Source of the DNA: Vicinamibacterales bacterium | Lineage (GTDB): Bacteria > Acidobacteriota > Vicinamibacteria > Vicinamibacterales > SCN-69-37 | Assembly: GCA_035550595.1 (NCBI GenBank) | Contig: DASZOV010000124.1 | Location: 11,135 to 75,134 of the forward strand | Reading direction: 5' to 3' | Length of the DNA: 64,000 bases | Part shown: positions 7,738 to 25,200 of the stretch, piece after piece | Numbering within the stretch: the stretch's first letter is position 1 | Layout: the number at the start of each line of letters is the position of its first letter | Position numbers and translations under genes: made by a program | Notes under the pieces: generated by a model | What the model was told of the DNA's origin: nothing | What the model saw: the letters and a program-made list of their open reading frames with translations, nothing else | Databases searched by the model: none

Positions 7738-7791
7738 GCGAACACCTCGCGACCTTCACCGCGCCACGGCGATGCCTTTCACCGTCGACCG

Positions 7792-8181: not shown

Positions 8182-8251
8182 GAGTGGATGCCTTTCGCCG
8201 GCCGCCACGGCGGCGGTGCGAGGGGCATTCTACGCTGCCGGCCGGTGTCCG

Positions 8252-8617: not shown

Positions 8618-9763
8618 GTGACCGACGACGAGCCCGGGAACACCAGCGACCAAGCCCGCCTGTTGCGGCGCCAGGTCCTGCAACTCTCTGCCCTCATCCT
8701 CGTCGCCATCGCCGCCTTTTTCGTCACCCGGTCTCTTGCCGCGAGCAACCGCGAGATGCGGCTGGCCGACGGGGCGGCGTGGTACGGCCGAGGCCAGCGC
8801 GATCTGGCCGCCGGAAACGTCAAGGCCGCCGTCGACGCGTTCCGGCGGGCGACCGTCGGCAGCAGGACCGACACGCGCTACGTCCTCGCGCTGGCGCACG
8901 CGCTCGCACTCGACGGGCAGGATGACGCCGCCCGCCGCGTGCTGCTCGGGCTGCGCGAGACCGCTCCGGAGAACATCGATATCAATCTGGCGCTCGCGCG
9001 CCTGGCCGCTCGCGATGGCGACGTGACCACGGCCGCGCGCTATTACCACAACGCGCTCTACGTGCCGTGGCCGGACGACCAGACGGCGACGCGCCGCGCC
9101 GTGCGGTCGGAGCTCGCCGATTTCCTGCTCGCGCACGGTCGCACCGCGCCGGCGCTCTCCGAACTGCTCGTGCTCGCGAGCAATCTGCCGGCCGATCCCG
9201 CGCTGCACCGTGACGTCGCCCGCCGCTTTGCCGCGGCCGGCGACAACCGTCATGCGCTCGACGAGTTCGAACACGCTCTACGCGCGGCCCCTGACGATGA
9301 CGAGTCGCTCGCCGGCGCCGGGCAGGCCGCGTTGGCGCTCGGTGACTACGCCCGTGCGCGCCGTTATCTCGATCGCGCGCCCGACCGCATCGCCGGCGTG
9401 GTCGACGCGCGTCAGCTCGTGACCCATGTCATCGATGACGATCCGTTGGCGGCGCGCATCGGCGGTACAGCGCGCGCGAACCGTCTGCGGACGAATCTCG
9501 CTTACGCGGCCGACCGTCTGCGAGCGTGCCTGGCCACGGGACCGGCGGCGGCCACCGACGCCGACCGCGCGCTCGACGCCGACGCGCGGCAATTCGAGAC
9601 CGCGCATCGCGGCTCGACGGCCGAAAACGAAGACGCCGCCGAGGCCGGCGTCGACCTCGCGTCGCGGATCGTCACGGCCGCGACGAGACTTTGCCCACCG
9701 GCCACGCCGCGCGATCGCGCGCTGGTCCTCATCGCCCAACGTCACGGAGACAGCGACCGGTGA
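8618..9763 (+). CDS. Membrane-anchored TPR-repeat protein
   Basis: One TM segment (LSALILVAIAAFFV) followed by repeated A/L/Y/R-rich TPR-like helices. Confidence 0.65.
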   Translation: MTDDEPGNTSDQARLLRRQVLQLSALILVAIAAFFVTRSLAASNREMRLADGAAWYGRGQRDLAAGNVKAAVDAFRRATVGSRTDTRYVLALAHALALDGQDDAARRVLLGLRETAPENIDINLALARLAARDGDVTTAARYYHNALYVPWPDDQTATRRAVRSELADFLLAHGRTAPALSELLVLASNLPADPALHRDVARRFAAAGDNRHALDEFEHALRAAPDDDESLAGAGQAALALGDYARARRYLDRAPDRIAGVVDARQLVTHVIDDDPLAARIGGTARANRLRTNLAYAADRLRACLATGPAAATDADRALDADARQFETAHRGSTAENEDAAEAGVDLASRIVTAATRLCPPATPRDRALVLIAQRHGDSDR

Positions 9764-11544
9764 CCAATCCTCTGCCGCGCACGCTGCAGCTCCGCCTTCG
9801 CGAACATCAGATCTTCCTCGTCCTCTCAATCGTCATCGGCGTCCTCGCCGGACTCGCCGCGGTCCTGTTCACGGTCGCGATCGACCAGACGAGCCATCGA
9901 CTCTTCGGCCTCACGCCATCGCGTCTGCGACTCTTCCTGATTCCGACGCTCCTCAGCGTGCCCACGGGCGTACTGCTCGCGACGATCTTTCCAGGCGTGC
10001 GCGGCAGCGGCCTCCCCCAGACCAAGGCCGCCTACCGGCTGCAGGGCGGATTCATTCGAGCGCGCGTGCCGTTCGGCAAGTTCCTGACTGGCGTGTTGTC
10101 GATCGGCGCCGGCCATTCGATGGGGCCGGAAGGTCCGTCCGTGCAGATCGGCGCCGGCCTGGCGTCGGTCATCGGACGATGGGTCGGGCTCTCGCCGACG
10201 CGCGCGCGTGACCTCGTGCCGGTCGCCGCGGCGGCCGCGCTGGCGTCCGCGTTCAACACCCCTGTCGCCGCCGTGCTCTTCGCGCTCGAAGAAATCATCG
10301 GCGACCTGAATGCGCCGCTCCTCGGCTCGGCCGTCATCGCGTCGGTCGCCTCGGTCATCGTCGAACGCTCGATCCTCGGCAACGAACCGCTGTTTCACGT
10401 CCCGACGTATCACCTCGTGCATCCCGCCGAGCTGGCGGCCTACGCGGTGCTCGGGGTGATCGGCGGCGTGCTGTCACTCGTGTTCTGCAAGGGACTGCTG
10501 GGTGCACGGCTCCTCTTCCGGCGGCTGCCACGGTGGACGATGTCGTTCCAGCCGGCCATTGGCGGCATGCTCGTGGGCCTGGCCCTCATCGCCGCGCCGG
10601 CGGTCATGGGCGTCGGCTACGAGTACGTCGACCAGGCTCTCAACGGCGGGTTGCTGCTGAAGACGATGGCGCTGCTCTGCGTGATGAAGCTCGTGGCCAC
10701 GATCATCTCGTGCTCGTCGGGCGCGGCCGGCGGGATTTTCGCGCCGAGTCTGTACATCGGCGCCATGGCGGGCGGCGCGGTGGGATTCGTCGTGCACCGG
10801 TTCGCGCCGTTTCCAACCGGCGACCCCGGTGCGTACGCCCTCGTCGGCATGGGGACGGTCTTCGCCGGCATCGTTCGCACGCCGATGACGTCCGTGTTCA
10901 TGATCTTCGAGATCACGCAGGACTATCAGATCCTCGTGCCGCTCATGGTCGCCAACATGCTGAGCTTCCTGATCTCGAAGCGTTACCAGCCGTTGTCGAT
11001 CAACGACGCGATCCTGCAGCAGGACGACGTCCATCTGCCGCCGCCCGCCGCGGATCAGGCTGCGGCGACGAGCGTCACGGCTCGCGCGCTCATGCGGGCC
11101 GATGCCCCGTTGTTCGATCCGGCGATGACGATTGCGGCCGCCGCCGCGCGGTCCGCGCAGGATCGAAGCACCGCGTGCCTGGTCGGCACCGGACGACGTC
11201 TGCTCGGTATGGTGACCGCCGAACATCTGGCGGCGGCGCTGGCGGCGGGCCGCGGTGCCGAGCCGCTCAAAGAGCTCCTCGATCCCGACGCCGACACGTT
11301 CGTCCACGTCCATCCCGACCATCCGGTCGAGACGGTGTTCGATCGCTTCGGACAAAGCGGCGGCGTGCTTCCCGTCGTGAGCCGCACCGACGCGCGCCGC
11401 GTCGAAGGCGTGGTCACACTCGACGATCTGGTCGCGTTCGGTCGACCGAGGCGGCAGGCGCCAAAGCCACATGTCGAGCCGGCGCCGCCCGTCTCGACGT
11501 CGGCGCCGAGCACGCCGGCGTCGTCAATCGACACGCCTTCCTAG
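9760..11544 (+). CDS. ClC family chloride channel / H+-Cl- exchanger with C-terminal CBS pair
   Basis: GSGLPQ, GPEGPSVQIGA and GIFAPSLYIGA selectivity motifs. Start set at GTG 9760 (GTGA overlap with the upstream stop) rather than the ORF-track start at 9526. Confidence 0.88.
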   Translation: MTNPLPRTLQLRLREHQIFLVLSIVIGVLAGLAAVLFTVAIDQTSHRLFGLTPSRLRLFLIPTLLSVPTGVLLATIFPGVRGSGLPQTKAAYRLQGGFIRARVPFGKFLTGVLSIGAGHSMGPEGPSVQIGAGLASVIGRWVGLSPTRARDLVPVAAAAALASAFNTPVAAVLFALEEIIGDLNAPLLGSAVIASVASVIVERSILGNEPLFHVPTYHLVHPAELAAYAVLGVIGGVLSLVFCKGLLGARLLFRRLPRWTMSFQPAIGGMLVGLALIAAPAVMGVGYEYVDQALNGGLLLKTMALLCVMKLVATIISCSSGAAGGIFAPSLYIGAMAGGAVGFVVHRFAPFPTGDPGAYALVGMGTVFAGIVRTPMTSVFMIFEITQDYQILVPLMVANMLSFLISKRYQPLSINDAILQQDDVHLPPPAADQAAATSVTARALMRADAPLFDPAMTIAAAAARSAQDRSTACLVGTGRRLLGMVTAEHLAAALAAGRGAEPLKELLDPDADTFVHVHPDHPVETVFDRFGQSGGVLPVVSRTDARRVEGVVTLDDLVAFGRPRRQAPKPHVEPAPPVSTSAPSTPASSIDTPS

Positions 11545-11553
11545 CCGACCGCG

Positions 11554-12360
11554 TCACTGCGCCGCCGCGCGCGCGAGCCGCAGCGACGCCCAGTATTTGA
11601 GCGGTTCCTGCCGGCCCTCCGAGAACTGTCCCCCGTTGAAACCGCCAGTGCCGACGCCGCCGATCCGGCCACCGAGCGGGCCCATCGGCCGGCCGCCGCG
11701 ACCGCCCATCCGGCCGCGCGGGGTCGGTGACGCGATCGATTCCAACCCGATGCCGATCGTCGCGCCAGGTGCCACGCCCACGGCATACAGGCGATTGGCG
11801 TCCTTTGCGAGCGGCACTTTCAACTCGTAGGTCAACACGCCGCGGTCTTCGATCGCCGCCAGCTCCATGCCGAGCGAGGGATCGAGACGAACGAGATGCC
11901 GCTCCTTCTCGCCAGGACCGTAGACGTCGAACTGCGTGATCGACGTGGCCGGCTCGGGCAGGAGCACGCCTTCGGTGGGTGGCGGCAGCCGGCGCGATCC
12001 GGCGGCGCCAGGTTCAACGACACCAGGAATGCCGATGCCGAACGTCTTCTTCTTGTGATCGGTCGCGTCGAGCCAGACGATGAGGCCCTGCCCGAGCGTC
12101 TGCCGAAGCGTCTGATCGCTCGTTGTCGCGATGACGTAGAGCGCATCGGTATCGTTGGCGACGCCGATGGCCGGACCGTCTTCGATGACGGCGAGCGGCC
12201 CCCATTCGGTGTTCTCGCCGTCGACGTGAATGTCCTGCGTGCGCCATTGGCTCGCGAGCGCGTGATCGGTGGCGTGCAGCGACGAAGCCGTCAGCGCCAC
12301 GGCCACGGCGCTGCAGGCGGTCCAAATCCAGGGACGAAACATGCGCGAAAAGGAAGACAT
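11554..12360 (-). CDS. Secreted hypothetical protein with Gly/Arg-rich C-terminal tail
   Basis: Start at MSSFSRMFRPWIWTACSAVAVALTASSLHA (signal peptide). Tail RGRMGGRGGRPMGPLGGRIGGVGTGGFNGG. Confidence 0.5.
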   Translation of the reverse strand: MSSFSRMFRPWIWTACSAVAVALTASSLHATDHALASQWRTQDIHVDGENTEWGPLAVIEDGPAIGVANDTDALYVIATTSDQTLRQTLGQGLIVWLDATDHKKKTFGIGIPGVVEPGAAGSRRLPPPTEGVLLPEPATSITQFDVYGPGEKERHLVRLDPSLGMELAAIEDRGVLTYELKVPLAKDANRLYAVGVAPGATIGIGLESIASPTPRGRMGGRGGRPMGPLGGRIGGVGTGGFNGGQFSEGRQEPLKYWASLRLARAAAQ

Positions 12361-13450: not shown

Positions 13451-13485
13451 CGTTCGAAGTTTGAAGTTCGCAGTTCGAAGTTTGC
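13451..13485. repeat. Tandem heptamer array (GTTYGMA)x5, reverse orientation of the 3481 array
   Basis: gttcgaa gtttgaa gttcgca gttcgaa gtttgca, between convergent genes. Confidence 0.9.
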
Positions 13486-13492: not shown

Positions 13493-14620
13493 CTAATCGT
13501 GCGGCGGCTCGACGTTCACGAGCGGCGGCTTGGCGACCGGCGGTTCGTCGCGCGCCTGGCCTTCGTCGGGTCCAGGCTCGTGTCCGTCAGACGGAAGCGA
13601 GACGGGCTCGCCTCGTCGCGCGGACTCGTACAACGCTTCGACGATGCGCACATCGCGCGCCCCCTCTTCGCCTGACGGCTCGGGCGCACGACCCTGCCGG
13701 ATGCAATCCGCGAAATACAGGATCTCGGCCGCGAATTGATCGCGTCGCCGTCCTTTGCGATGGATGGGCCGTCCGCCGGACGTCAGCGTGTATTCCAGCG
13801 GGTCGACGTACTCATAGGCGGGCTGCATGACGAGGTCGCCTTCGGTGCCGACGACGCGGAAGCTGGACACGTCGGCGGCGGCAAAGCTCGTCGTGAAGGT
13901 CGCGTGACGGCCGTTGTCGAAGACGAGCACGGCCGACGTCATCTCATCGATACCGGGCAATCCGGCGCGGTCGCCCGGCGCTGCGTGCGCGAACACCTGC
14001 AAGGGTTCGCCGTCGAGCGTCGTGCGTGCCGCGTTGATGCAGTAGACGCCGAGGTCGTACAGCGTGCCGCCGCCGAGTTCCGGCCGCGTGCGGATGTTCC
14101 CGGGCTTCACGGTCATCGAGAATGACGACGCGAAGTACTTCACGTCGCCGATGTCGCCAGCGCGGACGCGCGACAACGCTTCGATGGCCAGCGGATCGAA
14201 GTGGAGCCGATATGCCGTCATCAGAAGGACGCCAGCCTGCCGGCACGCATCGATCATCGTGCGCGCATCGTCGGTCGTCGCCGCCAAGGGCTTCTCGCAT
14301 AGAACGTGCACGCCGACCCGCGCAGCGCGTACCGCGTGGCTCGCATGTTCGGAATTGGGTGTCGCGATGTACGCCGCGTCGCACTCGGCGAGGAGCCGTT
14401 CGAGGTCGTCATAGCCGCCACGTGACGGCACGTCGTACCGGTCACCGACGTCGCGCAGTTTTTCGACGTCGCCGCTCACGATCGCCTGAAGGCGCGCTCG
14501 CGGCCCGGCGTGGGCGAACGCCGGCAGGACGGCCACCTGCGCAATGTGCCCCAGCCCGATGACGGCAAACCGTACCGGCTTCGCGCGCGGCGTGCGCGTG
14601 TGTTTCGTTGCCAACGCCAT
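13493..14620 (-). CDS. Gfo/Idh/MocA family oxidoreductase
   Basis: N-terminal Rossmann motif VRFAVIGLGHIAQ and EKPLA motif, 375 aa. Confidence 0.88.
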   Translation of the reverse strand: MALATKHTRTPRAKPVRFAVIGLGHIAQVAVLPAFAHAGPRARLQAIVSGDVEKLRDVGDRYDVPSRGGYDDLERLLAECDAAYIATPNSEHASHAVRAARVGVHVLCEKPLAATTDDARTMIDACRQAGVLLMTAYRLHFDPLAIEALSRVRAGDIGDVKYFASSFSMTVKPGNIRTRPELGGGTLYDLGVYCINAARTTLDGEPLQVFAHAAPGDRAGLPGIDEMTSAVLVFDNGRHATFTTSFAAADVSSFRVVGTEGDLVMQPAYEYVDPLEYTLTSGGRPIHRKGRRRDQFAAEILYFADCIRQGRAPEPSGEEGARDVRIVEALYESARRGEPVSLPSDGHEPGPDEGQARDEPPVAKPPLVNVEPPHD

Positions 14621-14844
14621 GTCCCCTGCCCTGGCCCGACACCAGAGTCGAGCAAGAGCGGTGCCGGCCGTCGAGCCGTCCCACCCGGTACGGGCGAAGG
14701 CTATCGACTCGGCACGCGGCTGCCCGTTTTCATCCTGCCGATGCGCACGATGGGCACGCCGGATCGCCGCTATGGGCGCACTCGCGCCAGGGACAACCGC
14801 CGTTCGTGGAGTTCGTCTTGCAGCACGTGGAGCAGGAGGTCCCT

Positions 14845-15015
14845 ATGAAGCGCGATCCCGTGTGCGGCATGGAAGTCGACGAAGCGCGCGCACCCGCCAA
14901 GGCGACCTACAAGGGCGAGACGTTCTACTTCTGCTCCGACGATTGCCGCGATCAGTTCCTGCGTAACCCCGACGCCTACGTGGCGCCGCCGGCAACGACG
15001 CGGACGACGACATGA
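14845..15015 (+). CDS. YHS/TRASH-domain metal-binding protein
   Basis: MKRDPVCGMEVDE...YKGETFYFCSDDCRDQFLRNPDAY. Internal ATG at 14845 within ORF 14608..15015. Confidence 0.85.
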   Translation: MKRDPVCGMEVDEARAPAKATYKGETFYFCSDDCRDQFLRNPDAYVAPPATTRTTT

Positions 15016-15347
15016 GCCCGAAAGCGCGCCCCCGTCGGCACGCTCGCGCGTCCCGCGCCACGCGCGGGCGCGCGAGCGGCGCGCGCTGGTCGGGCGACGT
15101 CACCGCACACAGCAACGCGCTGACGCTGGAGCCAGGCGTCTTCCGGCACTGGAGTGCCCGCGCCATTGCGGAGTCGCTGAAACGTTCGGCCGAACACAGC
15201 CGCCGTCGCAAGAGCTCACCCTACCGATCGGCGATGTCGATGCTCACCTTCTACATCAACCGCGCGGGCCGCAATCTTCCGGCGTCGCGCCGACGCACCC
15301 TCGTTCGCGCCAAGACCGAATTGCGACACCTGTTCAAACGCGACTGA
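15012..15347 (+). CDS. DUF3175 domain protein
   Basis: SNALTLEPGVF...IAESLKRSAEHSRRRKSSPYRSAMSMLTFYINRAGRNL matches my memory of the DUF3175 core. ATGA overlap with the YHS gene. Confidence 0.75.
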   Translation: MSPKARPRRHARASRATRGRASGARWSGDVTAHSNALTLEPGVFRHWSARAIAESLKRSAEHSRRRKSSPYRSAMSMLTFYINRAGRNLPASRRRTLVRAKTELRHLFKRD

Positions 15348-15367
15348 TACCAAAAACACGTTTTCAC

Positions 15368-15398
15368 AACTTCGAACTTCGAACGGCGAACTTCGAAC
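15368..15398. repeat. TTCGAAC heptamer array, left arm of an inverted pair
   Basis: aacttcgaacttcgaacggcgaacttcgaac. Confidence 0.9.
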
Positions 15399-15480
15399 GA
15401 ATGGGGCGCCTTCGGCGCGTCTTTTTGAATGTGAAACACGCCCCAATCGCGGGCGCCATGCACCGGGCATGCACCGTTTC

Positions 15481-15514
15481 AAGTTCGAACTTCGAAGTTC
15501 AAAGTTCAAAGTTT
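15481..15514. repeat. TTCGAAC/TTCAAAG heptamer array, right arm of an inverted pair
   Basis: aagttcgaacttcgaagttcaaagttcaaagttt is the reverse complement of the left arm with C-to-T changes. It abuts the stop codon at 15514-15516. Confidence 0.9.
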
Positions 15515-16320
15515 CAGTACCCCTCCGCCTTCGCTTCCTCGCCGATCTTCTTGCCGTTGCGCCAGGTGTTCGCGCACAGCGGATGCGTGAAGACGGACGG
15601 ACCGTCGGCTTCGCTGAACTGGATGTCGTCGACGAACTCACCCTTCGGCGGATCGAGGCTCGCGAGATGTCGCACGCGCTTGGCGATCTCGTGATCGGCG
15701 CACGCCGTGTCCCCGCTCACGCCGAGGCCACCGACGCGCGTGTTGTTGCGATAGAGGGGCACGCCACCGCCGAACGTGATGATGCCGCCGCACACCTTCC
15801 CGTTGCTCGCCGAGGCGTCGTCTGGTGACGCGAGACAGTCAGGATTGAACGTGTTCGACGAGGCGAGGCCCCACAGTGAATGCCCTGGCTGCGTGAGCGT
15901 GTAGAGACGCGCCGTCGAGAGCGGCATGGCGTCGGTGCTGAAGGCATTGGCGGTGTACGCCTTGGCTTTCGCAATCGCTTGACTGCCGGGCCAGGCCGCC
16001 GCCGGATCGTCGGTCGCAACCGCCGTCGCGCAGACTTCGCCCTTGCGGTCGACGACGGCCGCCCACTCCATCTTGCCGGAGAACAATCCGCCGGCCTCGC
16101 CGCCTTCGGCCGGAGCGCGCTGCAGCCACGACTTCAGATCCGAGGCGGACGGCAGATCGCCGCACGCAGCATCCGCCGTGCCCGGCCTGGGTTGGCGCGC
16201 CGCTTCGGCGGCCACGCCCGGTTGCGTCGTCGCAGGACTCGGCTGACTCTGCGACGGCGACCCGCAGCCGCACGCGGCGAGCGCGAGCAGTACGACACCA
16301 GCACGTTTCTCCCATTGCAT
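15514..16320 (-). CDS. Lipoprotein with GlcG/HbpS-like (DUF336) heme-binding-type domain
   Basis: Lipobox LLALAACGCGS. Also GSQAIAKAKAYTANAF ... GGLGVSGDTACADHEIA. Confidence 0.7.
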   Translation of the reverse strand: MQWEKRAGVVLLALAACGCGSPSQSQPSPATTQPGVAAEAARQPRPGTADAACGDLPSASDLKSWLQRAPAEGGEAGGLFSGKMEWAAVVDRKGEVCATAVATDDPAAAWPGSQAIAKAKAYTANAFSTDAMPLSTARLYTLTQPGHSLWGLASSNTFNPDCLASPDDASASNGKVCGGIITFGGGVPLYRNNTRVGGLGVSGDTACADHEIAKRVRHLASLDPPKGEFVDDIQFSEADGPSVFTHPLCANTWRNGKKIGEEAKAEGY

Positions 16321-16338
16321 CGTGCGCCTCCCGTCAGT

Positions 16339-17349
16339 TCAGTGCAGGCTCTGCAGATACGCCACGAGCGCGCCGACGTCGTCCGACGACAAGCCGCCGA
16401 TGTCCGGCATCTTCGCGTCGGGCTTCAGCACCTGCGCATGAACGACCCACGCGGCGAGCGTGCCCGCGTTGCGCTCGTAGCTGTTGGCCGCGAGCCCTCG
16501 CCGGCTCGCGAAGTGCGTGAGATCGGGTCCGACGCCGCCGCGCGCCGTCGTGCCACGAATGCTGTGACAGAGCGCGCACTGCGCGGACATGAACACGTCG
16601 CGCCCGCGCGTGGCCGCCGGAGTCGTGGGCGTTCGGGCCTCGGCCCGTTGATTCGCGGCCCACGCCGCGAAGTCGGCCGGCGCATCCGCCATGACGACGA
16701 GCCGCATCTTGCCGTGTTCGGGCCCGCAGTACTCGGCGCACTGTCCCGTGTAGACGCCCGGCTCGGATGCTTGAATGCGGATGTGGTTGACCACACCCGG
16801 AACGAGATCCACTTTGCCGTGCAGTTGCGGAATCCAGAAGGAATGGATGACGTCGGCCGACCGAAGTTCGATCGTGACCGGCGTCGCGGCCGGGACGTGG
16901 ACTTCATTGGCTGTCATGAACGCCGGCCCGGCGTCATCCGCCAGGTACTGCACTTCCCACCACCACTGATGCCCGACGATGCGAATCGACGCGTCGTCTC
17001 CGTGATCCGCCATCGGGAATGCCGCCATCGTGTGCAGCGTGGCGATGAAGACGATGGCGAGCGTGATAGCCGGAATCGCAATCCCGCCGACGTAGATGAA
17101 CGCGCGGCCGTCTTCCGTCTGCCAGGACGCGTGCTCGTCGAACGTGCCGCGACGCCGCAGGCCGACCCAGAAGATGAGCAGCCACATCACGACGCTGACA
17201 ATCGCGAAGCATACGAGCACCCAGAAGCCGAGCTGCGCAATGCGCGCGGCCGCCGGTCCGGCTGGCGACAGCACGTGCGGAGCGGCGCCGGCCGATCGAG
17301 CAATGCCCGCGAGCAGCACGAACAGGAAGAAGAGTGCGACACGCGTCAT
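16339..17349 (-). CDS. coxB: Cytochrome c oxidase subunit II with fused C-terminal cytochrome c domain (caa3-type)
   Basis: CuA motif HSFWIPQLHGK...CAEYCGPEHGKM and heme motif CALCH. Confidence 0.92.
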   Translation of the reverse strand: MTRVALFFLFVLLAGIARSAGAAPHVLSPAGPAAARIAQLGFWVLVCFAIVSVVMWLLIFWVGLRRRGTFDEHASWQTEDGRAFIYVGGIAIPAITLAIVFIATLHTMAAFPMADHGDDASIRIVGHQWWWEVQYLADDAGPAFMTANEVHVPAATPVTIELRSADVIHSFWIPQLHGKVDLVPGVVNHIRIQASEPGVYTGQCAEYCGPEHGKMRLVVMADAPADFAAWAANQRAEARTPTTPAATRGRDVFMSAQCALCHSIRGTTARGGVGPDLTHFASRRGLAANSYERNAGTLAAWVVHAQVLKPDAKMPDIGGLSSDDVGALVAYLQSLH

Positions 17350-17813
17350 GGTTGCGGCCGATTAGGCTCGGCGTTGGTCCGCATCGACTTGATGTAAGTG
17401 ACGAGCTTCCAGATCTGATCGTCGTTGAGACGCATGCCCCACGCGGGCATGCCGTTGGCGCGTCCCTCCGCGATGCTCGAGAACACCTGGCTGTCGGCAT
17501 GGCCGTAGATCCACGTGCCGTCGCGCAGACTCGGGCCCATGCCGCCACCGCCGTGATCGCCGTGACAGCCGGCGCAATTGAACTGGTTGAAGAGTGTGCG
17601 GCCGTCGGCGAGCGCGGCCGGATTGCCGTCGAACGGACTGCCCGGCTGATTGACCGTCTTGATGGGACCCGGGATCGGACCGACGGCCGTTCGGCCGGGC
17701 GGAATGGCCGAGGCGAGCGGGGTTCCCATTCCGGCGGCCGGTGCGGTCCGGCTGCAGCCGGCCAGCGCGAGGATGACACCGACGACTGCGAGCACGCGCG
17801 TGGTCTTCCTCAC
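17346..17813 (-). CDS. Lipoprotein mono-heme cytochrome c, candidate XoxG-like electron acceptor
   Basis: Lipobox LALAGCS and heme motif CAGCHG. ATGA overlaps on both sides. Confidence 0.8.
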   Translation of the reverse strand: MRKTTRVLAVVGVILALAGCSRTAPAAGMGTPLASAIPPGRTAVGPIPGPIKTVNQPGSPFDGNPAALADGRTLFNQFNCAGCHGDHGGGGMGPSLRDGTWIYGHADSQVFSSIAEGRANGMPAWGMRLNDDQIWKLVTYIKSMRTNAEPNRPQP

Positions 17814-18721
17814 GACGCGCCTCCGCCGGTCGATGCCGATGTCGTGACTGGTTGCGTGTCGCTTGCGCGCGGGACCGAGAAGTTCGCCAGTACGCGATCG
17901 ATCGCCGGTGCATGCGTCGCGATGAACTGATCCAGCGCGCGCCGCAGCACGGCGTCGTCAGCGCGTACGCCCATGGCAATGGCGAACGCAAAGGGCCCAG
18001 CGGATTCGACGGGCTCGAGTCGCAGCGGCGCAGCCGCGCGGCGTGCGAAGAAGCCTGCGATCGGTCCCCACACGACGGCGACGTCGACTCGGCCCGACGC
18101 CACCGCGTCGACGATCGCCCGCGTCGGCGCCGGCTGGTTGTAGTCGCCGTAGACGGGAAATCCTCGAACCTGGCCGGCCAGATGTCTCGTCGCCAACGCC
18201 TCGGCCGCAGGTGGATTGGCGTAGTCGTCGCCAATCAACTGGATGCCGATCGTCAACCGTCGTAGTCGCGGGTCGTCGAACGATCGGATGTCGAGAACGC
18301 GATTGCGCCTCGACACGAAGACGTATGTCGACCGGTAGTACGGGCGCGTCGTCGCGAGTCCGTCGCTCGCCGCCGGCACGCCCATGACGACGTCACAGGT
18401 GCCGGCCTCGAGTGTCCGCCGCAGGAATCCGCGGCGCTGCGGCCACCACGTGTAGATGACGCGACGATGCAGCGCCTGGCCGGCGAGCGAGGCAATCGCG
18501 TTCTCAAAACCTTCTCCGCGCGCATTCGAGAACGGCAGGTTGTTCGGATCCGCACAGACGCGGAGTTCGTCCGCCACTGCGGCGTTCGACGCCTGCGGTC
18601 GCGAGACGACATGCGGCGGCTGACTCGCGGTCACCGCAAGCGTCGGTCGCGCGGCTCCGGTGGCGCTGCACGCGACGGCGGACGTCAGGGTCAAACACAG
18701 GAATCTAGATGCCGAAGACAT
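17810..18721 (-). CDS. xoxJ: MoxJ/XoxJ-like quinoprotein-dehydrogenase-associated periplasmic binding protein
   Basis: LRVCADPNNLPFSN ... YYRSTYVFV ... VDVAVVWGP pattern of the MoxJ family, immediately downstream of the PQQ dehydrogenase. Confidence 0.75.
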   Translation of the reverse strand: MSSASRFLCLTLTSAVACSATGAARPTLAVTASQPPHVVSRPQASNAAVADELRVCADPNNLPFSNARGEGFENAIASLAGQALHRRVIYTWWPQRRGFLRRTLEAGTCDVVMGVPAASDGLATTRPYYRSTYVFVSRRNRVLDIRSFDDPRLRRLTIGIQLIGDDYANPPAAEALATRHLAGQVRGFPVYGDYNQPAPTRAIVDAVASGRVDVAVVWGPIAGFFARRAAAPLRLEPVESAGPFAFAIAMGVRADDAVLRRALDQFIATHAPAIDRVLANFSVPRASDTQPVTTSASTGGGAS

Positions 18722-20546
18722 ACACCACGTCTCCCGGCGCCGTGCGCTTCTTGATGTCTTTCATCGCCCCGACGACGCCGAGCGCCGCGTAGGGGTCATC
18801 GAGCGAAATGCTCGGAAACGCGACAGCGCCCATCCACCCGCCGACACCGGAATACACGGCGACGTACTGTTTGCCGTCCGGACCGAGATACGTCATCGGG
18901 TTGCCGACGATGCCCGAGGCGGTGTGGAACTGCCACAACTGGGCGCCGGTGCGCGCGTCCACGGCGCGGAACCAGCCGTCCATCGTTCCGTAGAAGACGA
19001 CGTCGCCGCCCGTCGCGAGGACGCCGCTGTAGACCGGCAGCACGGTCTCCTTGTCGCCCCACGCTTTGCGCCGGTTCGCGACGTCCCAGGCGACGAGTTC
19101 GCCCTGATAGCCGCCCGGACCGGGAAACATCTTCACGCTCGCACCGAGATAGGGCGTGCCGGCGATGTAGTTGGCGTCGACGCCCTCGTAGTCCATGCAC
19201 GTGTTGTGCGCGGCGATGTAGAGATAGCCCGTGCGTGGCGAGAAGGCCGACGGCACGACCTCCTTCGCGCCGGTCGACGAGGGACAGATGTCCTCGGTCA
19301 CGACGTGCGCGTGCGTCTCCTTGTCCGCGTTCTTGGTCGGCGCACCGGTCGAGAGGTCGTACCCGGATGCCCAATTCGTGGGCTCGAACTCGTCGGCCGA
19401 GAGCACCTCGCCCGTCTCGCGGTCGAGGACGAAGACGAAGCCAGTGCGCCCCGGATGGATGAGCAGCTTGCGCATGCGCCCGCCAACCTGCATGTCGACG
19501 AGGACGTTCTCCATGATCTCGTCGTAGTCCCACGAGTCGTGCGGCACGATCTGATACGCCCATCGCGCCTCGCCGGTGTCGGGATCGCGCGCGATGATCG
19601 AGCACGACCACTTGTTGTCGCCGGGCCGCAGATCCGGATTCCACACGCCTGGGTTGGCGGTGCCGTAGAAGATCAGATTCGTCTCGGGGTCATACGAGAT
19701 CCAGCCCCAGACGGTCGCGCCGCCGAGCTTCCACTGATCGGTTGGCCAGCTCGACACGCCGAGATCCTTGCCCTGATCCTTGGCGTAGAAGGCGTGGAAG
19801 TGCGGTCCAATCTTGACGTCGGCGTCGGGCCCCGTGTTGAACGCGCGCCACAGCTCGCGGCCCGTGCCGAGATCGAGCGCCGCGACATAACCGCGCACGC
19901 CCAACTCGGCGCCCGAGTTGCCAACGATGACCTTGTTGCCGACGACGATGGGCGCGCCGGTCATCGTCTCGCCGACGCCGATCTCGCCGACCTTCGTCCG
20001 CCAGACTTCTTTACCGGTGGCCGCATCGACGGCGACCGTGTGCGCGTCGAGCAGGTTGTAGACGATCTTGCCGTCGGCATAGGCCGCCCCGCGATTGACG
20101 ACGTCGCAGCAGGCGATGCCGACCGCACGTGAATCGGGGTGCGGCTCGTACACCCACTTGATGGCGCCGCCAGGAACGGTGAGGTCGACCGCGATGAGGT
20201 TGTTCGGGTACGGCGTGACGACGTACATCGTGTGGTCGACGACGAGCGGCTGCCCTTCGTGTCCGTGAGGAATCCCCGTGCTGAACGTCGTCGTCGGTCG
20301 CAGGTGCGCGACGTTCGTGGTCGTGATTTGGTCGAGCGGGCTGTAGCGTAGATTGCCCGGATCGCCGGCGGGCGAACGCCATTCGCCGTTCGGCAGATCC
20401 GCCACGAGATGAATGGCGGCGAGCGTGCCTGGAGCCGATGTCGCCGTCGGCGCCTGCTCCGGCGGCGTGGACTGGTGTCGGCTGCAGCCGATCATGGCCG
20501 CTGCGGCCAGTACGCCCACCATCCACACCCTGCCGATCCGTTGCAT
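18705..20546 (-). CDS. xoxF: PQQ-dependent methanol/ethanol-family dehydrogenase, XoxF-like (lanthanide-type signature)
   Basis: Start chosen at MQRIGRVWMVGVLAAAAMIGCS (lipobox). Vicinal Cys GIACCDVVNRG, then GNSGAELGVRG, WGWISYDP and PHDSWDYDE (D-Y-D). Confidence 0.85.
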   Translation of the reverse strand: MQRIGRVWMVGVLAAAAMIGCSRHQSTPPEQAPTATSAPGTLAAIHLVADLPNGEWRSPAGDPGNLRYSPLDQITTTNVAHLRPTTTFSTGIPHGHEGQPLVVDHTMYVVTPYPNNLIAVDLTVPGGAIKWVYEPHPDSRAVGIACCDVVNRGAAYADGKIVYNLLDAHTVAVDAATGKEVWRTKVGEIGVGETMTGAPIVVGNKVIVGNSGAELGVRGYVAALDLGTGRELWRAFNTGPDADVKIGPHFHAFYAKDQGKDLGVSSWPTDQWKLGGATVWGWISYDPETNLIFYGTANPGVWNPDLRPGDNKWSCSIIARDPDTGEARWAYQIVPHDSWDYDEIMENVLVDMQVGGRMRKLLIHPGRTGFVFVLDRETGEVLSADEFEPTNWASGYDLSTGAPTKNADKETHAHVVTEDICPSSTGAKEVVPSAFSPRTGYLYIAAHNTCMDYEGVDANYIAGTPYLGASVKMFPGPGGYQGELVAWDVANRRKAWGDKETVLPVYSGVLATGGDVVFYGTMDGWFRAVDARTGAQLWQFHTASGIVGNPMTYLGPDGKQYVAVYSGVGGWMGAVAFPSISLDDPYAALGVVGAMKDIKKRTAPGDVVYVFGI

Positions 20547-20581
20547 CGCGTCCTCGCTTCCCTTCCGCGCCCGCGCGTGGT

Positions 20582-20980
20582 CTACCGCATTGCCCCGCAC
20601 CCCGACAGCCACACGCTCGACAGTCCGGCCCACACGATGCCAACCGCGAACGCCGCGCTGACGAAAATGCCCGCCGTCACGGCAAAACGCGCCACGCCGG
20701 CCGCCGCCGGCGCAATGTCCCGTCCGATCGCGGCGTCCAAGCGATGCCCTTGCCGCACGCCGACCACGAGCGCGGCGACCGCAACGCCAAGCGCGACGAT
20801 CGACACCGCACCGATGAGGCCGCGCGCCGTGCCGACCGATAGCGGCCGGCACAGCCGTTCGCCGACCCACCAGACGATGAGCCCCTGCGCGATCCATGCG
20901 CAGGGCGCGGCGACAAGAGCGAACCGCAGCGCGGGATGCGCCTGGGACGACACGAGCGGCAGGCGATCGGTGGCGGTCAT
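20582..20980 (-). CDS. Hypothetical small membrane protein (3-4 TM), possibly an accessory oxidase subunit
   Basis: 132 aa, hydrophobic. ATGA overlap with ctaE. Lies 35 nt upstream of xoxF, which has a GGAAG/GAGG-like SD. Confidence 0.5.
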   Translation of the reverse strand: MTATDRLPLVSSQAHPALRFALVAAPCAWIAQGLIVWWVGERLCRPLSVGTARGLIGAVSIVALGVAVAALVVGVRQGHRLDAAIGRDIAPAAAGVARFAVTAGIFVSAAFAVGIVWAGLSSVWLSGCGAMR

Positions 20981-21582
20981 GAGGTGAAATGAGGGACGAC
21001 GTACAGGAGCGCCACGATCAGCACCCAGACGACGTCGACGAAGTGCCAGTAGAGCGCGGCGTTGTGCAGCGGCCGGTGCGGTGGTTTGACGCCTTCACCC
21101 GGCTCCGGCAAGAGGAGCACGTAGACGAGCATCAACACGCCGAGCGTCACGTGCAGGCCGTGAATGCCGGTCAGCGCGTAGAACGTCGACCCGTACGCGT
21201 TCGATGACGGCCGAATGACCTGAAGGCGCTCGTGATATTCGAGTGCCTGCAGACCGAGGAAGGCGAGCCCGCAGAGGACCGTGACCGTGGTTGCAATGCG
21301 GGCGGCCCTACGCTCGCCGCGCCGGAGCCGTCGCTCGCCCCACGCCAAGATGAAGCTGCTCGCCACGAGCACGACGAGCATCAGCAGCGCCAGCGTCAAT
21401 TTCGGCGGCGCATCGCGCCATTCGGGCGAGCCGTAGCCGAGATAGAAGTAGGCGAAGAACAGCATCACGAACAACATCGCTTCGTTCGCGATGAAGAGCG
21501 CCATCGCCGCGGTGCCGCGGCGCGCATCGGGCGCGTACGCAAGTTCGGGTCCGGGAAGCGGCCGTGCCGCGGCGGCGCTCAT
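20977..21582 (-). CDS. ctaE: Cytochrome c oxidase subunit III
   Basis: FIANEAMLFVMLFFAYFYL ... GLHVTLGVLMLVYVL ... YWHFVDVVWV. Start set at the ATG overlapping the ctaD stop (ATGA). Confidence 0.88.
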   Translation of the reverse strand: MSAAAARPLPGPELAYAPDARRGTAAMALFIANEAMLFVMLFFAYFYLGYGSPEWRDAPPKLTLALLMLVVLVASSFILAWGERRLRRGERRAARIATTVTVLCGLAFLGLQALEYHERLQVIRPSSNAYGSTFYALTGIHGLHVTLGVLMLVYVLLLPEPGEGVKPPHRPLHNAALYWHFVDVVWVLIVALLYVVPHFTS

Positions 21583-23423
21583 GCCACTCGCTCCGGCTCT
21601 GGCCACAGCCAGGCCGCCACCGCCCAGAGACTCAGGAGGACGCCCGCCAGAGCCAGCCATAGCAATTCGAACAGCATCGCGGCCGACACGAGCGTGAGCG
21701 CCAGCGCGAGGAACAGCGGCGTCGACGTGTCTTCGGGCATCTTGGCCACGCCCACGACTTCCGCGGTCAGCGGCGAGGTCGAGAGCGTGCCGCGGACGTG
21801 ATCGAGTCGACGCTCGTCGAAGGGATCTTCGCGTTCATCCCAGTCGTCCCAGAGGGGATGGCGGCTCGCGACGAGCGGAATGCGATCGGTGCCGTAGACG
21901 GGCGGCGGCGACGGCATGTCCCATTCGAGCGTGTCGGCGCGCCACGGATTTGCGTCCGATCGCTCGCCGTATCGGTGAACCATCACGACGTTCCACCACG
22001 TCAATAGCAGACCGGCCGCCATGACGTAGGCGCCGACCGTCTCGGTCAGGTTGAGCCCGGTCCATCCGAGACCGGCGCCGTACGTCCACACGCGGCGCGG
22101 CATGCCGAACAGCCCGTTGAAGTGCATCGGAAAGAACGTGACGTTGAATCCGATGAACACGAGCCAGAAACTCCACAGCCCGATCCGTTCGTTCAGGCGC
22201 CAGCCGGTGATCTTCGGCATCCAGTAGTACAAAGCGGCCAGCACGGGAAAGAGATTCGCGCCGATGAGCACGTAGTGCAGGTGCGCGACGACGAAGTACG
22301 TGTCGTGAACCTGCCAGTCGAACGGGACGACGGCCGTCACGATCCCGCTGAGTCCGCCGATGACGAAGATGGCGAGAAAGCCCAATGCGAACCACAGCGA
22401 CGTGGTGCGCACCGGCCGCCCGTGCCACAGCGTCGCAATCCAGGCGAAGACCTGGATGGCGCTGAAGACGGAGATCGTCATCGACGCGGCGCTGAAGACG
22501 CTCATCGCCATCTCGGTCATGCCGATGGCGAACATGTGATGGACCCACACGCCGAACCCGACGAGGCCTGTGAGCACGGTCGCGAGCGCGACGTAGGTGT
22601 AGCCGACGATCGGCCGTCGCGCGAAGACCGGCAGGAGCATCGAGACCATGCCCGTTGCCGGCAGGAAGATGATGTAGACCCAGGGATGTCCGAAGAACCA
22701 GAACAACTGCTGCCACAAGATCACGCTGCCGCCGCGTGACGTGTCGAAGAAGTGCGTGCCCCAGCGGCGATCCGCCTCGAGCATCAGGCACGCGGCCGTC
22801 AGGCCCGGTAGCGCGAACAGGACGGACACCGACACCGTCAAGGTGCTGTACATGACGAGCGGCATGCGCGTAATCGTCATGCCCGGCGCGCGGAGCTGCA
22901 GGATCGTCACGATGAAGTTCACCGCGCCCACCGTTGTCGATACCGTGAGCAGGAGCAGCGCGATGGCGTAGAAGTCCATGTTCAGGCCCGGCGAGTACAC
23001 CTGATTCGTATAGGGCACGTAGGCGAACCAGCCGCCGTTCGGCGCCTGGCCGAGCCATGGACTGACGTAGAGAAAGGCGCCGGAGAACAGAAACGTCCAG
23101 TAGCTGAAAGCGTTCAGTCGCGGGAACGCCATGTCACGCGATCCGGCCAGCAGCGGAATGAGGTAGTTGCCGAAGCCCGAGAGAATCGGCGACGCGTACC
23201 AGAAGATCATCGTGATGCCGTGCAGGCTGAAGATCTGATCGTAGGCCTCCGGCGTCAGCACATGTCCGTTCGGCAGCGCGAGTTGCGTGCGGATGATGAG
23301 CGCTTCGACACCGCCGATGAAGAGGAAGATGGCGGCGGTGACGATGTAGCGGCGGCCGATATCTTTGTGGTCGACGGTCGCGAGCCAGCCGCGCCAGGTA
23401 TGAGGCCGCTCCCAAAGCGACAT
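21579..23423 (-). CDS. ctaD: Cytochrome c oxidase subunit I (heme-copper oxidase), with hydrophobic C-terminal extension
   Basis: WLATVDHKDIGRRY, HGITMIFW, WFFGHPWVYI and HHMF...HFHYVL-type motifs. Start set at MSLWERPHTW. Confidence 0.93.
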   Translation of the reverse strand: MSLWERPHTWRGWLATVDHKDIGRRYIVTAAIFLFIGGVEALIIRTQLALPNGHVLTPEAYDQIFSLHGITMIFWYASPILSGFGNYLIPLLAGSRDMAFPRLNAFSYWTFLFSGAFLYVSPWLGQAPNGGWFAYVPYTNQVYSPGLNMDFYAIALLLLTVSTTVGAVNFIVTILQLRAPGMTITRMPLVMYSTLTVSVSVLFALPGLTAACLMLEADRRWGTHFFDTSRGGSVILWQQLFWFFGHPWVYIIFLPATGMVSMLLPVFARRPIVGYTYVALATVLTGLVGFGVWVHHMFAIGMTEMAMSVFSAASMTISVFSAIQVFAWIATLWHGRPVRTTSLWFALGFLAIFVIGGLSGIVTAVVPFDWQVHDTYFVVAHLHYVLIGANLFPVLAALYYWMPKITGWRLNERIGLWSFWLVFIGFNVTFFPMHFNGLFGMPRRVWTYGAGLGWTGLNLTETVGAYVMAAGLLLTWWNVVMVHRYGERSDANPWRADTLEWDMPSPPPVYGTDRIPLVASRHPLWDDWDEREDPFDERRLDHVRGTLSTSPLTAEVVGVAKMPEDTSTPLFLALALTLVSAAMLFELLWLALAGVLLSLWAVAAWLWPEPERVA

Positions 23424-23619
23424 GAGACGAGCTTCGACGTTAGTCACACATGGCAGGCCGGCATCCGGAGAATCGTGCAATTGGAATACCAGCACAGCAT
23501 CCGGCGGACCGCCGCGCGTGCGATCGACGCCGGCGATGAGGTGCTGAGACTGAGCACGGCGCCGCCCAACCGCAGCACTCACCCGTGGGCACGGGCGAAG
23601 CGCTGATCTGAACGCTATA

Positions 23620-25200
23620 ATGACGACGCGTTCCCCCGAGTCGCTCTGCTGTCACGCCATGCCGCTCAAGGCCGCGCCACTCCTCGCGGCGATCGTCGAG
23701 TCGTCCGACGATGCCATCGTGACCAAGGATCTGAACGGCACGACCACGAGCTGGAACGCGGCCGCGACGCGGCTGTTCGGCTACACCGCTCCGGAGATCA
23801 TCGGCCGCGACATCCGCGTCATCATTCCGCACGAACGGCTCGACGAAGAGGAGTTCGTCCTCGGCCGCGTGCGCAACGGGCTCAGCGTCAATCATTTCGA
23901 AACGGTGCGTCTTCGCAAGGACGGGACGTCGATCGACGTCTCGATCACGGTCTCGCCGGTTCGCGATCGCCGCGGCCGGATCATCGGCGTCTCGAAGATC
24001 GCCCGCGACATCAGCGGCCTCAAGCGCGCGCTCGAGGACGCGCGCCGCGCCAATCAGCTCAAGGACGAGTTCCTCGCCATCCTCTCGCACGAGTTGCGCA
24101 CGCCGTTGAACGCCATCATGGGGTGGGCGGGCTTGCTCGCGACGTCCGCCCCGGACGCGATGACGCGCCGCGCGGCCAGCATCATCCAGCGCAACACGCA
24201 CGCGCAGGCCCGGCTCGTCGACGACCTGCTCGACGTCTCGCGCATCGTGTCCGGCACGCTGGTGCTCGCGCGTGAGCCGGCGGATCTCCGCGATCTGGCC
24301 TCCGCCGCCATCGAAGACATGCGCCCGCTCGCCGCGGCCAAATCCGTCGAGCTACGGCTGGTCGGTGACACTGATGGCCAACCGGCAACGGTCTGCGGAG
24401 ATGCCGCGCGGCTGCAGCAGATCATCTGGAACCTGCTCTCGAACGCGGTCAAGTTCACGCCGCCGCGCGGGCACGTGGTCGTGACGATCCGGCGCGACGC
24501 GGAGACGGTCGAACTCATGGTGGCCGACAGCGGTCAAGGCATTGCGCCAGCGTTCCTGCCGCACGTCTTCGATCGGTTCCGCCAAGGCGATGCCTCGACG
24601 ACGCGTGAGCACGATGGCCTCGGGTTGGGCCTCAACATCGCCGCCGAGCTCACGGCCGCGCACGGAGGCACGATTGCGGTCGACAGCGAGGGCATCGACC
24701 GCGGTGCGACGTTCACCGTCCGGCTGCCCGCGGCGCCCGCACTCGCGCAGCCGGCGGCCGCCGCCGATCCAGCAGCGGCGTGCGACGCCCGACTCGACGG
24801 CATGCGCGTGCTCGTCGTCGACGACGAGCCGGACGCGGCGAGCGCCCTGGCACTGGCGCTCGAACGTCGCGGCGCCGAGGTGACGACGTGTACGAGTGCG
24901 GCCGATGCCCTTGCGGCGATCGAGACCGACAAGGTCGACGTGCTCCTGGCTGATATCGGCATGCCGCGGATGGACGGCTACGAGCTGATGCAGCGCATCC
25001 GGTCATCCCTGCCGCGCCAACGCTGGCCGATCGCCGCGATTGCCGTGACGGCCTACGCGGGTGCCACGGTACGCGCGCGCGTCTTCGAGGCAGGCTTCGA
25101 CGCGCACGTCCAGAAACCCACGCTGCCCGAGCGCGTCATCGCCGTGGTCGCGCAGACTCTGGCGACGCGCACGAGTGCCCATGAGCGGAGCGCGCCATGA
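23620..25200 (+). CDS. Soluble PAS-domain hybrid sensor histidine kinase / response regulator
   Basis: PAS (IVTKDLNGTTTSWNAAATRLFGY), H-box LSHELRTPLN, N/G boxes, receiver (VLVVDDEPD...DIGMPRMDG). No TM segment. An alternative start exists at about 23659. Confidence 0.88.
   Translation: MTTRSPESLCCHAMPLKAAPLLAAIVESSDDAIVTKDLNGTTTSWNAAATRLFGYTAPEIIGRDIRVIIPHERLDEEEFVLGRVRNGLSVNHFETVRLRKDGTSIDVSITVSPVRDRRGRIIGVSKIARDISGLKRALEDARRANQLKDEFLAILSHELRTPLNAIMGWAGLLATSAPDAMTRRAASIIQRNTHAQARLVDDLLDVSRIVSGTLVLAREPADLRDLASAAIEDMRPLAAAKSVELRLVGDTDGQPATVCGDAARLQQIIWNLLSNAVKFTPPRGHVVVTIRRDAETVELMVADSGQGIAPAFLPHVFDRFRQGDASTTREHDGLGLGLNIAAELTAAHGGTIAVDSEGIDRGATFTVRLPAAPALAQPAAAADPAAACDARLDGMRVLVVDDEPDAASALALALERRGAEVTTCTSAADALAAIETDKVDVLLADIGMPRMDGYELMQRIRSSLPRQRWPIAAIAVTAYAGATVRARVFEAGFDAHVQKPTLPERVIAVVAQTLATRTSAHERSAP

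Follow-up and report, generated by a model that had tools for sequence, protein, structure and literature searches.

Does an alcohol dehydrogenase whose genes lie in the middle of a cytochrome c oxidase cluster feed its electrons to that same oxidase? The question is raised by a 64,000-nt stretch of DNA from a Vicinamibacterales genome (the window), in which eight minus-strand genes, between positions 23423 and 15514, code for a pyrroloquinoline quinone (PQQ)-dependent dehydrogenase of the XoxF type, its partner proteins and the subunits of a haem-copper oxidase. From the anatomy and synteny of these genes we infer, with a probability of about 0.75, that the cassette is a self-contained 'XoxF3 system' joined to a 'type a-II' A-family oxidase and serves as a dedicated periplasmic branch from alcohol to O2. 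An earlier note on this DNA had presented the layout as apparently undescribed, which does not hold: the association of xoxF3 with cox genes and of COX operons with PQQ dehydrogenases has already been reported (PMC10875860; PMC4013037), and the window adds a Vicinamibacterales case to a cassette that is widespread and already published. The layout itself being known, the point for which the searched literature has no description is the oxidase lineage, in which Trp and Gln replace two residues of the proton channels.

The start codon, stop codon and length of each of the eight open reading frames (ORFs) were confirmed. The cluster begins with ctaD (21579..23423; haem-copper oxidase subunit I, 614 aa, PF00115 478 bits) and ctaE (20977..21582; a short, five-helix subunit III, 201 aa, PF00510 90 bits), followed by orf132 (20582..20980; a conserved 132-aa protein with three transmembrane (TM) segments and without a Pfam family) and by xoxF (18705..20546; a PQQ methanol/ethanol-family dehydrogenase, apparently of the lanthanide type, 613 aa). 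Next come xoxJ (17810..18721; a periplasmic binding-protein-like dehydrogenase partner, 303 aa), the gene for a monohaem cytochrome c in the position of xoxG (17346..17813; 155 aa, PF13442 and PF00034), coxB (16339..17349; subunit II with CuA and a fused C-terminal cytochrome c) and, as the final gene, that for a DUF336 lipoprotein (15514..16320; 268 aa, lipobox LAAC). The tight packing, coordinates, lengths and gaps given in the earlier note were all reproduced, and its gene identities proved right when judged by family profiles and PDB matches. The sole correction concerns the overlaps: those described as ATGA are indeed so for ctaD/ctaE, ctaE/orf132 and cytochrome c/coxB, but xoxJ and the cytochrome c gene share GTGA, since the latter, unlike the other seven genes, has GTG and not ATG as its start codon. 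With a 17-nt overlap between xoxF and xoxJ and gaps of 35 nt before xoxF and 18 nt before the DUF336 gene, every junction in the cassette is either an overlap or a gap of at most 35 nt.

The dehydrogenase, the binding protein and the cytochrome c do separate subunits I and III from subunit II in the window. The coxB gene lies ~3.2 kb downstream of ctaE, beyond xoxFJG, and shares 4 nt with the cytochrome c gene, so that assembly of the oxidase would depend on reading through the xox genes. This position of coxB is the strongest argument that the sequence offers for co-expression, and the eight genes most likely form one transcript with translational coupling. A promoter and terminator scan detected no sigma-70-like promoter or terminator-like site in the intergenic gaps of the cluster, which for Acidobacteriota is weak evidence, and the terminator-like matches within the cluster fell solely inside coding sequence.

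The arrangement recurs in many other genomes. A scan for XoxF in one genome per GTDB species yielded 597 relatives, and the best 80 loci, with flanks of up to 10 kb on each side of the related xoxF gene, were analysed by tblastn with the eight proteins. An A-family oxidase gene was present within the fetched flanks of 71 of these 80 XoxF-anchored loci. The split order ctaD-ctaE-(small ORFs)-xoxF-xoxJ-cytochrome c-coxB, usually followed by the DUF336 gene, was found in 51 loci, and six more were truncated and compatible with it. The remainder comprised six loci with the cyclic permutation xoxF-xoxJ-cytochrome c-coxB-ctaD(-ctaE), three with coxB-ctaD-ctaE upstream of xoxF, five with cox genes nearby on the other strand, five with flanks too short for judgement and four with long flanks devoid of an oxidase. 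Carriers of the split order were 38 members of Acidobacteriota, five of Gammaproteobacteria (among them Steroidobacter flavus, Frateuria and a metagenome-assembled genome (MAG) of Methylophaga), three each of Myxococcota and Gemmatimonadota, Azohydromonas australica and a Binatia MAG. The three contexts anchored on CtaD instead of XoxF, including that of the cultured Dyella sp. KRB-257, all showed the same cassette with 4-nt overlaps. Thus, the arrangement is far beyond chance and the layout is not a one-off; conservation of the order across phyla, together with the tight spacing, strongly backs the proposal in the earlier note of a single functional unit joining alcohol dehydrogenase to oxidase.

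Clustering of all predicted proteins of the related loci revealed no conserved gene outside the cassette, so that the boundaries originally drawn around the unit coincide with the limits of conservation and the cassette acts as a separate unit that moves horizontally. Transfer of this kind between phyla is indicated by its scattered taxonomic distribution; for instance, the Steroidobacter XoxF and CtaD are 73% and 68% identical, respectively, to the window proteins. Insertion of the xox genes into a cta operon is one way among several of describing the layout, given the cyclic permutation, the loci with coxB-ctaD-ctaE upstream and the convergent operons of Methylocella (see below). Because such other arrangements exist among the relatives, the association of xoxF with the oxidase is older than the order seen in the window. 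The window also differs from most of its relatives in one gene: they have, between the orf132 homologue and xoxF, an extra gene for a small (~125–130 aa) CxxCH cytochrome c (for example, 9367-9966 in locus L019 and 11225-11599 in the Dyella locus L082), which is absent from the window and from L006, L011 and L084.

In the proposed path, XoxF, a PQQ enzyme of the lanthanide type that is probably tethered to the membrane, would oxidize methanol or a similar small alcohol with the help of XoxJ and would pass the electrons to the cytochrome c lipoprotein whose gene takes the place of xoxG. They would then enter the cytochrome c domain of CoxB, move on to CuA and arrive at the haem and CuB of CtaD for the reduction of O2. 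CtaE and the three-TM product of orf132 would complete the oxidase, lipobox signals would hold the partners at the membrane, and the DUF336 lipoprotein would have an accessory role, either as a sensor or as a binder of a cofactor or an aldehyde. In the classical chains of Methylorubrum and Paracoccus, electrons flow from MxaFI or XoxF5 to cytochrome cL or XoxG, then to the soluble cytochrome cH and finally to a shared aa3 oxidase. The window has the same kinds of parts, namely a periplasmic PQQ dehydrogenase, a J-type protein, a dedicated c-type cytochrome and an A-family oxidase; however, the classical oxidase has its genes at another locus and also serves other donors, whereas here it belongs to the same cassette. 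By analogy, the role of cytochrome cH could fall here to the fused cytochrome c domain of CoxB.

The oxidase shares features with two enzymes of known structure. CoxB (TIGR02866 167 bits, cut-off 148; PF00116 and PF00034) has the predicted architecture of a caa3 oxidase, in which a class I cytochrome c is fused behind the CuA domain. Its best PDB match is subunit IIc of the Thermus thermophilus caa3 oxidase (2YEV_B, residues 26-335, E 2.1e-42), with which it aligns end to end, cytochrome c domain included; the CuA site consists of H169 and then C204-x-E-x-C-x3-H-x2-M (sequences CAEYCGPEHGKM and DVIHSFW), and the haem motif CALCH of the fused domain is found at residue 258. CtaD, which scores 670.6 bits against the NCBIfam CtaD_CoxA equivalog model TIGR02891 (cut-off 670.75), aligns best in the PDB with QoxB of the Bacillus subtilis aa3-600 oxidase (6KOB; residues 9-596), and its two extra helices past residue ~560 match the QoxB C-terminus. 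CtaE has five hydrophobic segments, and the NCBIfam models nearest to it are actinobacterial CtaE, QoxC and CyoC. Neither enzyme is a full counterpart, however. The T. thermophilus oxidase has fused subunits I and III, a Tyr-Ser motif and the K-channel Lys, whereas aa3-600 has no CuA, uses quinol and keeps both the K-channel Lys and the Glu; the window oxidase differs from the two in these respects.

The gene order of subunit I, subunit III and a small three-TM protein mirrors qoxBCD, which places orf132 where qox and cyo operons have subunit IV. The orf132 family directly follows ctaE in 54 of 57 loci and has an invariant W29, C44 and C128, with both Cys residues predicted to face the periplasm. 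Neither orf132 alone nor 21 of its homologues matched any Pfam or NCBIfam family, and the AlphaFold2 model, a three-helix bundle with a predicted local distance difference test (pLDDT) score of 78.6, retrieved nothing better than E 0.3 in a Foldseek search against the PDB. Homology to subunit IV is thus not supported, as there is no family or significant fold match and the position alone resembles qox/cyo. The protein is probably the ~110–130-aa 'hypothetical' of the published XoxF3 clusters (Voutsinos 2024, PMC10875860), and its generic three-helix fold, as modelled, probably explains the 'vesicle transport' similarity reported there. Members of the family are also encoded in the Methylocella and Burkholderia oxidase clusters.

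The main peculiarity of the oxidase lies in its proton channels. The six His ligands of CtaD (H68, H246, H295, H296, H381 and H383) and the cross-link Tyr (Y250) are invariant across the 53 lineage members; the His-Asp of the Mg site and the Arg pair are also kept, and so is the entrance of the D-channel (D97, N104, N169 and S162). In A-family oxidases the D-channel ends in either a Glu (subfamily A1, xGHPEV) or a Tyr-Ser pair (A2, YSHPxV) (PMC3084760). The window CtaD has neither: the Glu position is occupied by Trp248 (FFGHPWVY; codon 22682-22680), there is no A2 Tyr-Ser, and the same Trp was found in all 53 locus sequences and in all of the best 120 CtaD homologues in the database, every one of which belongs to the same HPWVY lineage. 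The K-channel Lys, K354 in Paracoccus denitrificans and K319 in the bovine enzyme, is likewise missing; its position, mapped by alignment with the bovine sequence (36% identity over 512 columns), holds Gln324 (codon 22454-22452) in the window, Gln in 51 of the 53 locus sequences and Ala in two plasmid examples. The Glu of subunit II regarded as the K-channel entry, E78 in P. denitrificans and within LEVVWT in the T. thermophilus caa3 oxidase, aligns with a Tyr (~Tyr85) in CoxB, and this fits a lost or altered K-channel. The lineage also has, in helix I, a membrane-embedded Glu (Glu40, ~23306-23304) that 119 of 122 members retain and canonical oxidases lack. Its counterpart in the alignment with B. 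subtilis QoxB is an Asp, presumably at the position of the quinol-site Asp75 of CyoB in the Escherichia coli bo3 oxidase, and the residue could be either what remains of a quinol site or a substitute proton carrier. No description of the Trp and Gln substitutions was found in the searched papers on haem-copper oxidase classification and nitric-oxide-reductase diversity or in those of Degli Esposti.

An oxidase so altered need not be a conventional proton pump: it might be a low-efficiency or non-pumping electron sink, might take its protons by another route, or might act on another substrate. Such a departure is suggested by the strictness of the Glu-to-Trp and Lys-to-Gln replacements and by the Tyr of CoxB, and there are precedents among Fe(II) oxidizers, whose A-family oxidases, also fed by periplasmic donors, lack the K-channel Lys and the entry Glu of subunit II (bioRxiv 10.1101/2020.03.01.968255). 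Against it, the three CuB His residues, the cross-link Tyr, the haem ligands and CuA are all intact, and the conserved D-channel entrance residues argue for a working proton path. We consider this explanation possible, with the balance tilting against it. The likeness to the Fe(II) oxidizers extends to gene organization, since the rus operon of Acidithiobacillus ferrooxidans and the COX clusters of other Fe(II) oxidizers also combine periplasmic carriers and a dedicated A-family oxidase in one operon. Their electrons, however, come from iron via Cyc2, rusticyanin and Cyc1, and their COX1 is classed as A2 with Tyr-Ser (bioRxiv 10.1101/2020.03.01.968255), whereas in the window the donor would be an alcohol dehydrogenase and CtaD has neither Glu nor Tyr-Ser.

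A bolder reading, which we put forward tentatively, is that the oxidase constitutes an undescribed A-family subtype with a different mode of proton delivery or coupling and works as part of a membrane-bound methanol:O2 oxidoreductase with lipid-anchored XoxF and XoxG, in the most abundant XoxF clade of soil. The traits of such a subtype would be Trp in place of the D-channel Glu, Gln or Ala in place of the K-channel Lys, Tyr in place of the entry Glu of subunit II, a QoxB-like 14-helix subunit I and a three-TM subunit with two Cys residues.

Some xoxF genes have a second, more distant oxidase lineage beside them (loci L001, L002, L008, L044, L016, L050, L057, L067-L071, L077 and L080), with CtaD proteins 43–49% identical to that of the window. 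These retain GHPEVY and have Gln at the K-channel Lys position, and their D-channel entrance is mostly lost (Asp in 2/11, the first Asn in 3/11 and the second Asn in 0/11).

The dehydrogenase appears to be a lanthanide-type member of the PQQ methanol/ethanol family. It scores 614 bits against TIGR03075 (cut-off 480) and 230 bits against PF01011, so that the eight-bladed PQQ domain of the family is present, and its best PDB match (4MAE, E 1e-186) is the Ce/La enzyme of Methylacidiphilum fumariolicum SolV. The alignment with 4MAE covers the motifs SWDYDE (residues 338-343), ACCD (145-148, with the vicinal Cys pair at 146-147), SGAELG and ANPG. Among the metal-binding residues of 4MAE, which include a Glu and an Asn, the extra Asp of the D-Y-D motif coordinates the lanthanide and is replaced by Ala in MxaF. 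Since D-Y-D is conserved in the window protein, this extra Asp is present, and by homology the enzyme is probably lanthanide-dependent. The cassette encodes the adjacent xoxJ and cytochrome c, and there is no mxaI-like or other small ORF in it. XoxF is 51% identical to the SolV enzyme, 47% to the XoxF of Methylorubrum extorquens (PDB 6OC5), 55% to the cox-linked enzyme of Methylocella tundrae and 57–78%, in pairwise comparisons, to the cox-linked enzymes of representative related loci. These values are compatible with, and not decisive for, its placement in clade 3 (XoxF3), a label that we adopt from the published statement that the cox-linked XoxF of Acidobacteria belongs to this clade.

XoxJ is a clear family member (TIGR03871 285 bits, cut-off 212), with M. 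extorquens XoxJ (PDB 6ONP, E 5.7e-45) as its structural match. The cytochrome c is a class I monohaem protein with the lipobox LAGC and the haem motif CAGCH at residue 80. Lipobox-like signals are a recurrent feature of the system: the XoxF signal peptide ends in AMIGC and about half of the XoxF homologues have a signal of this kind, and a lipobox was found in 59 of 77 cytochrome c homologues. Among XoxJ homologues, the same crude pattern detected it in 13 of 73, and the XoxJ of the window has a weak, non-canonical AVAC. Together with the lipobox of the DUF336 protein, the signals on XoxF and the cytochrome c suggest partners tethered to the membrane.

The DUF336 protein belongs to the HbpS/GlcG-like family (PF03928 58.7 bits, cut-off 25) and shows weak PDB matches to the DUF336 domain of PduO and to EfgA (6BWS, 26.6 bits, E 3.9e-5), the cytoplasmic formaldehyde sensor of M. 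extorquens (PMC8153426), from which it differs in having a lipoprotein signal. By tblastn, its gene ends the cassette in most related loci, with 36–45% identity in most genomes outside the Vicinamibacterales; stricter clustering grouped the protein in 29 loci. A gene for a DUF336 'heme-binding protein' also adjoins the M. tundrae cluster (L085, 7414-7809).

A rival view concerns what XoxF oxidizes in vivo. The substrate might be ethanol, another alcohol, an aldehyde or formaldehyde, as known for ExaF/PedH or for the side activities of XoxF, and the system would then be a general scavenging branch. In favour of this view, XoxF3 has never been characterized biochemically (PMC10875860), the DUF336 family has links to pathways that generate aldehydes and to EfgA, a sensor of formaldehyde (PMC8153426), and no methylotrophy genes were recognizable in the rest of the 64-kb window. 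However, the protein is far closer to methanol dehydrogenases (625 bits with SolV XoxF, 510 with MxaF) than to ethanol dehydrogenases (311 with PedH, 278 with ExaA), and XoxJ is a partner of the methanol-dehydrogenase type. A preference for something other than methanol therefore seems unlikely to us, if still deserving of a place beside methanol.

Three further comparisons relate the window to systems on record. Voutsinos (2024, PMC10875860) showed xoxF3 co-localized with coxI/II/III across Acidobacteria and Gemmatimonadetes in a comparison of clusters, found XoxF3 in all twelve XoxF-bearing Acidobacteria genomes, and counted it as the most numerous clade in weathered-granite and soil metagenomes, with 340 of 411 XoxF sequences; the Keltjens 2014 mini-review, as cited there, had noted cox and ctaG genes in xoxF3 operons. 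The published XoxF3 clusters of Acidobacteria, Gemmatimonadetes and Verrucomicrobia have the same gene set as the window, including the ~110–130-aa hypothetical protein, and the phylum matches, although the window has no gene for CtaG, NRAMP, YncE or a TonB receptor in or beside its cassette. Fragments of an NRAMP gene (7220-8409) and a gene for a YncE-like beta-propeller (16945-18060) flank the Dyella sp. KRB-257 cassette upstream and downstream, respectively; both kinds of accessory gene are mentioned in PMC10875860. Two of our related loci (L009 and L061) are from MAGs of gp6 Acidobacteria, whose isolate names suggest an origin in the Angelo grassland data set, a source for this literature.

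The second comparison is with COX operon type a-II, defined by a COX1-COX4 fusion, a five-helix COX3 and the frequent presence of PQQ-dependent dehydrogenases (Degli Esposti 2014, PMC4013037); the window shares the extended C-terminus of COX1 (CtaD has 614 aa), the five-helix COX3 and a PQQ dehydrogenase in the cluster. The electron route, the displaced coxB, transcription and the channel residues of the oxidase are not discussed in either PMC10875860 or PMC4013037. The third is with an annotated example of type a-II, plasmid p1 of Methylocella tundrae T4 (L085), whose CtaD is 57% identical to that of the window and has the same HPWVY motif. There, coxB-ctaD-cox3-hypothetical (orf132-like and Cys-containing)-cytochrome c, with the canonical coxB-ctaD-ctaE order that the window lacks, converges on xoxF-xoxJ-cytochrome c-ctaG, forming two units, whereas in the window all genes point in one direction and coxB follows the gene in the XoxG position.

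These arrangements lend some force to the view that the genes are co-located and not wired together, the oxidase being a general-purpose enzyme fed by the common cytochrome c pool and the xox genes having a transcription unit of their own. It is in line with this view that xoxF is preceded by a 35-nt gap and a good ribosome-binding site, that Methylocella has convergent operons and five loci have cox on the opposite strand, and that in Burkholderia an oxidase of this lineage is not accompanied by xoxF: on a plasmid of Burkholderia multivorans (NZ_CP020399.1, 260815-266600; L086), a Trp-type oxidase without a PQQ dehydrogenase is encoded in the order coxB, fused subunits I and III (876 aa), orf132-like protein and a 542-aa cytochrome c. 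On the other hand, the obligatory CoxB is encoded downstream of xoxFJG in the window, with the 4-nt overlap, and the split order holds in 51 of 80 loci across six lineages whose flanks are not conserved. We regard mere co-location as improbable.

Several observations nevertheless weigh against the dedicated branch. The idea that the oxidase lineage is exclusive to XoxF had to be rejected in view of the B. multivorans plasmid; as the Trp lineage is found in Methylocella and in PQQ-dehydrogenase-free Burkholderia, it is broader than the XoxF clusters. The cytochrome c may act like XoxG, as its position would suggest, and yet by score it is not a member of the cytochrome cL family (TIGR03872 50.5, cut-off 147.8; PDB 2D0W, 1.4e-8). 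An oxidase without the canonical D-channel Glu and K-channel Lys cannot be assumed to turn over or conserve energy as aa3 and caa3 oxidases do. The gap before xoxF could harbour an internal promoter invisible to a sigma-70 scan in Acidobacteriota. The findings from cultures point both ways: XoxF3 of Methylocella silvestris was barely expressed and did not respond to lanthanum (PMC9291206), whereas in Methylosinus trichosporium OB3b, in favour of the branch, cerium raised XoxF3 and the adjacent XoxJ (PMC12482762).

Finally, a one-off rearrangement or an assembly artefact, conceivable because the window comes from a MAG and a Vicinamibacterales MAG encodes a protein 100% identical to its orf132 product, is refuted by the same order in independent assemblies, in the isolates S. 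flavus, A. australica and Dyella sp., in long-read contigs of >1 Mb and in an independent Logan contig that has the same XoxF with the same neighbours.

A 196-nt region (23424..23619) separates ctaD from a divergent gene and presumably holds the promoter of the operon. It showed no sigma-70 consensus, and an Rfam scan of 14500-24500 gave no match. The divergent gene (23620-25200, plus strand) encodes a PAS-HisKA-HATPase-REC hybrid kinase. A sensor pair of the HbpS/SenS kind, formed by this kinase and the DUF336 protein, was considered and dropped because the kinase is not conserved beside related cassettes. Directly 3' of the last gene lies an inverted repeat (15368..15506; 32-nt arms, 81% complementarity) with (GAACTTC)n heptad arms around a GC hairpin; this structured region past the last stop codon has a fold z-score of -4.7 and a terminator-like hairpin at 15406-15418, and is likely to mark the end of the operon. 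AT-rich tandem heptads GAACTTC/TTCGAAG were also seen at 3484-3510, 13453-13479 and 57940-57952, at least two of them beside gene ends; the window has 14 heptad matches against 0.05 expected, and the repeats look like a dispersed element resembling repetitive extragenic palindromic (REP) sequences or terminators. Genes for a metal-binding YHS-domain protein and a DUF3175 protein (14608-15347, plus strand) converge on the 3' end of the cassette and are not conserved neighbours. No paralogues of the eight genes, and hence no second cta operon, were found within the window, the rest of which is housekeeping in nature (MetE, ribonucleotide reductase, RpoD, MacB-like permeases, a CLC channel and the YHS and DUF3175 proteins) and has no recognizable PQQ-synthesis genes.

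The value of the window cassette thus lies in a system that is still uncharacterized and in an unusual oxidase, not in a new layout. The strict loss of two textbook proton-channel residues makes this oxidase of interest for bioenergetics. As cultured carriers have been identified (Dyella sp. KRB-257, S. flavus CGMCC 1.10759, A. australica DSM 1124, Acidobacteria bacterium AB60 and M. tundrae T4), the idea of a dedicated branch is testable. The occurrence of XoxF3 with its own oxidase in Acidobacteriota, Gemmatimonadota, Myxococcota and Proteobacteria suggests that in these bacteria methanol or similar alcohols serve chiefly to supply electrons for respiration, by way of a short branch that is sufficient in itself; if true, this would matter for methanol sinks in soil, for lanthanide biology and for the cultivation of abundant soil bacteria.

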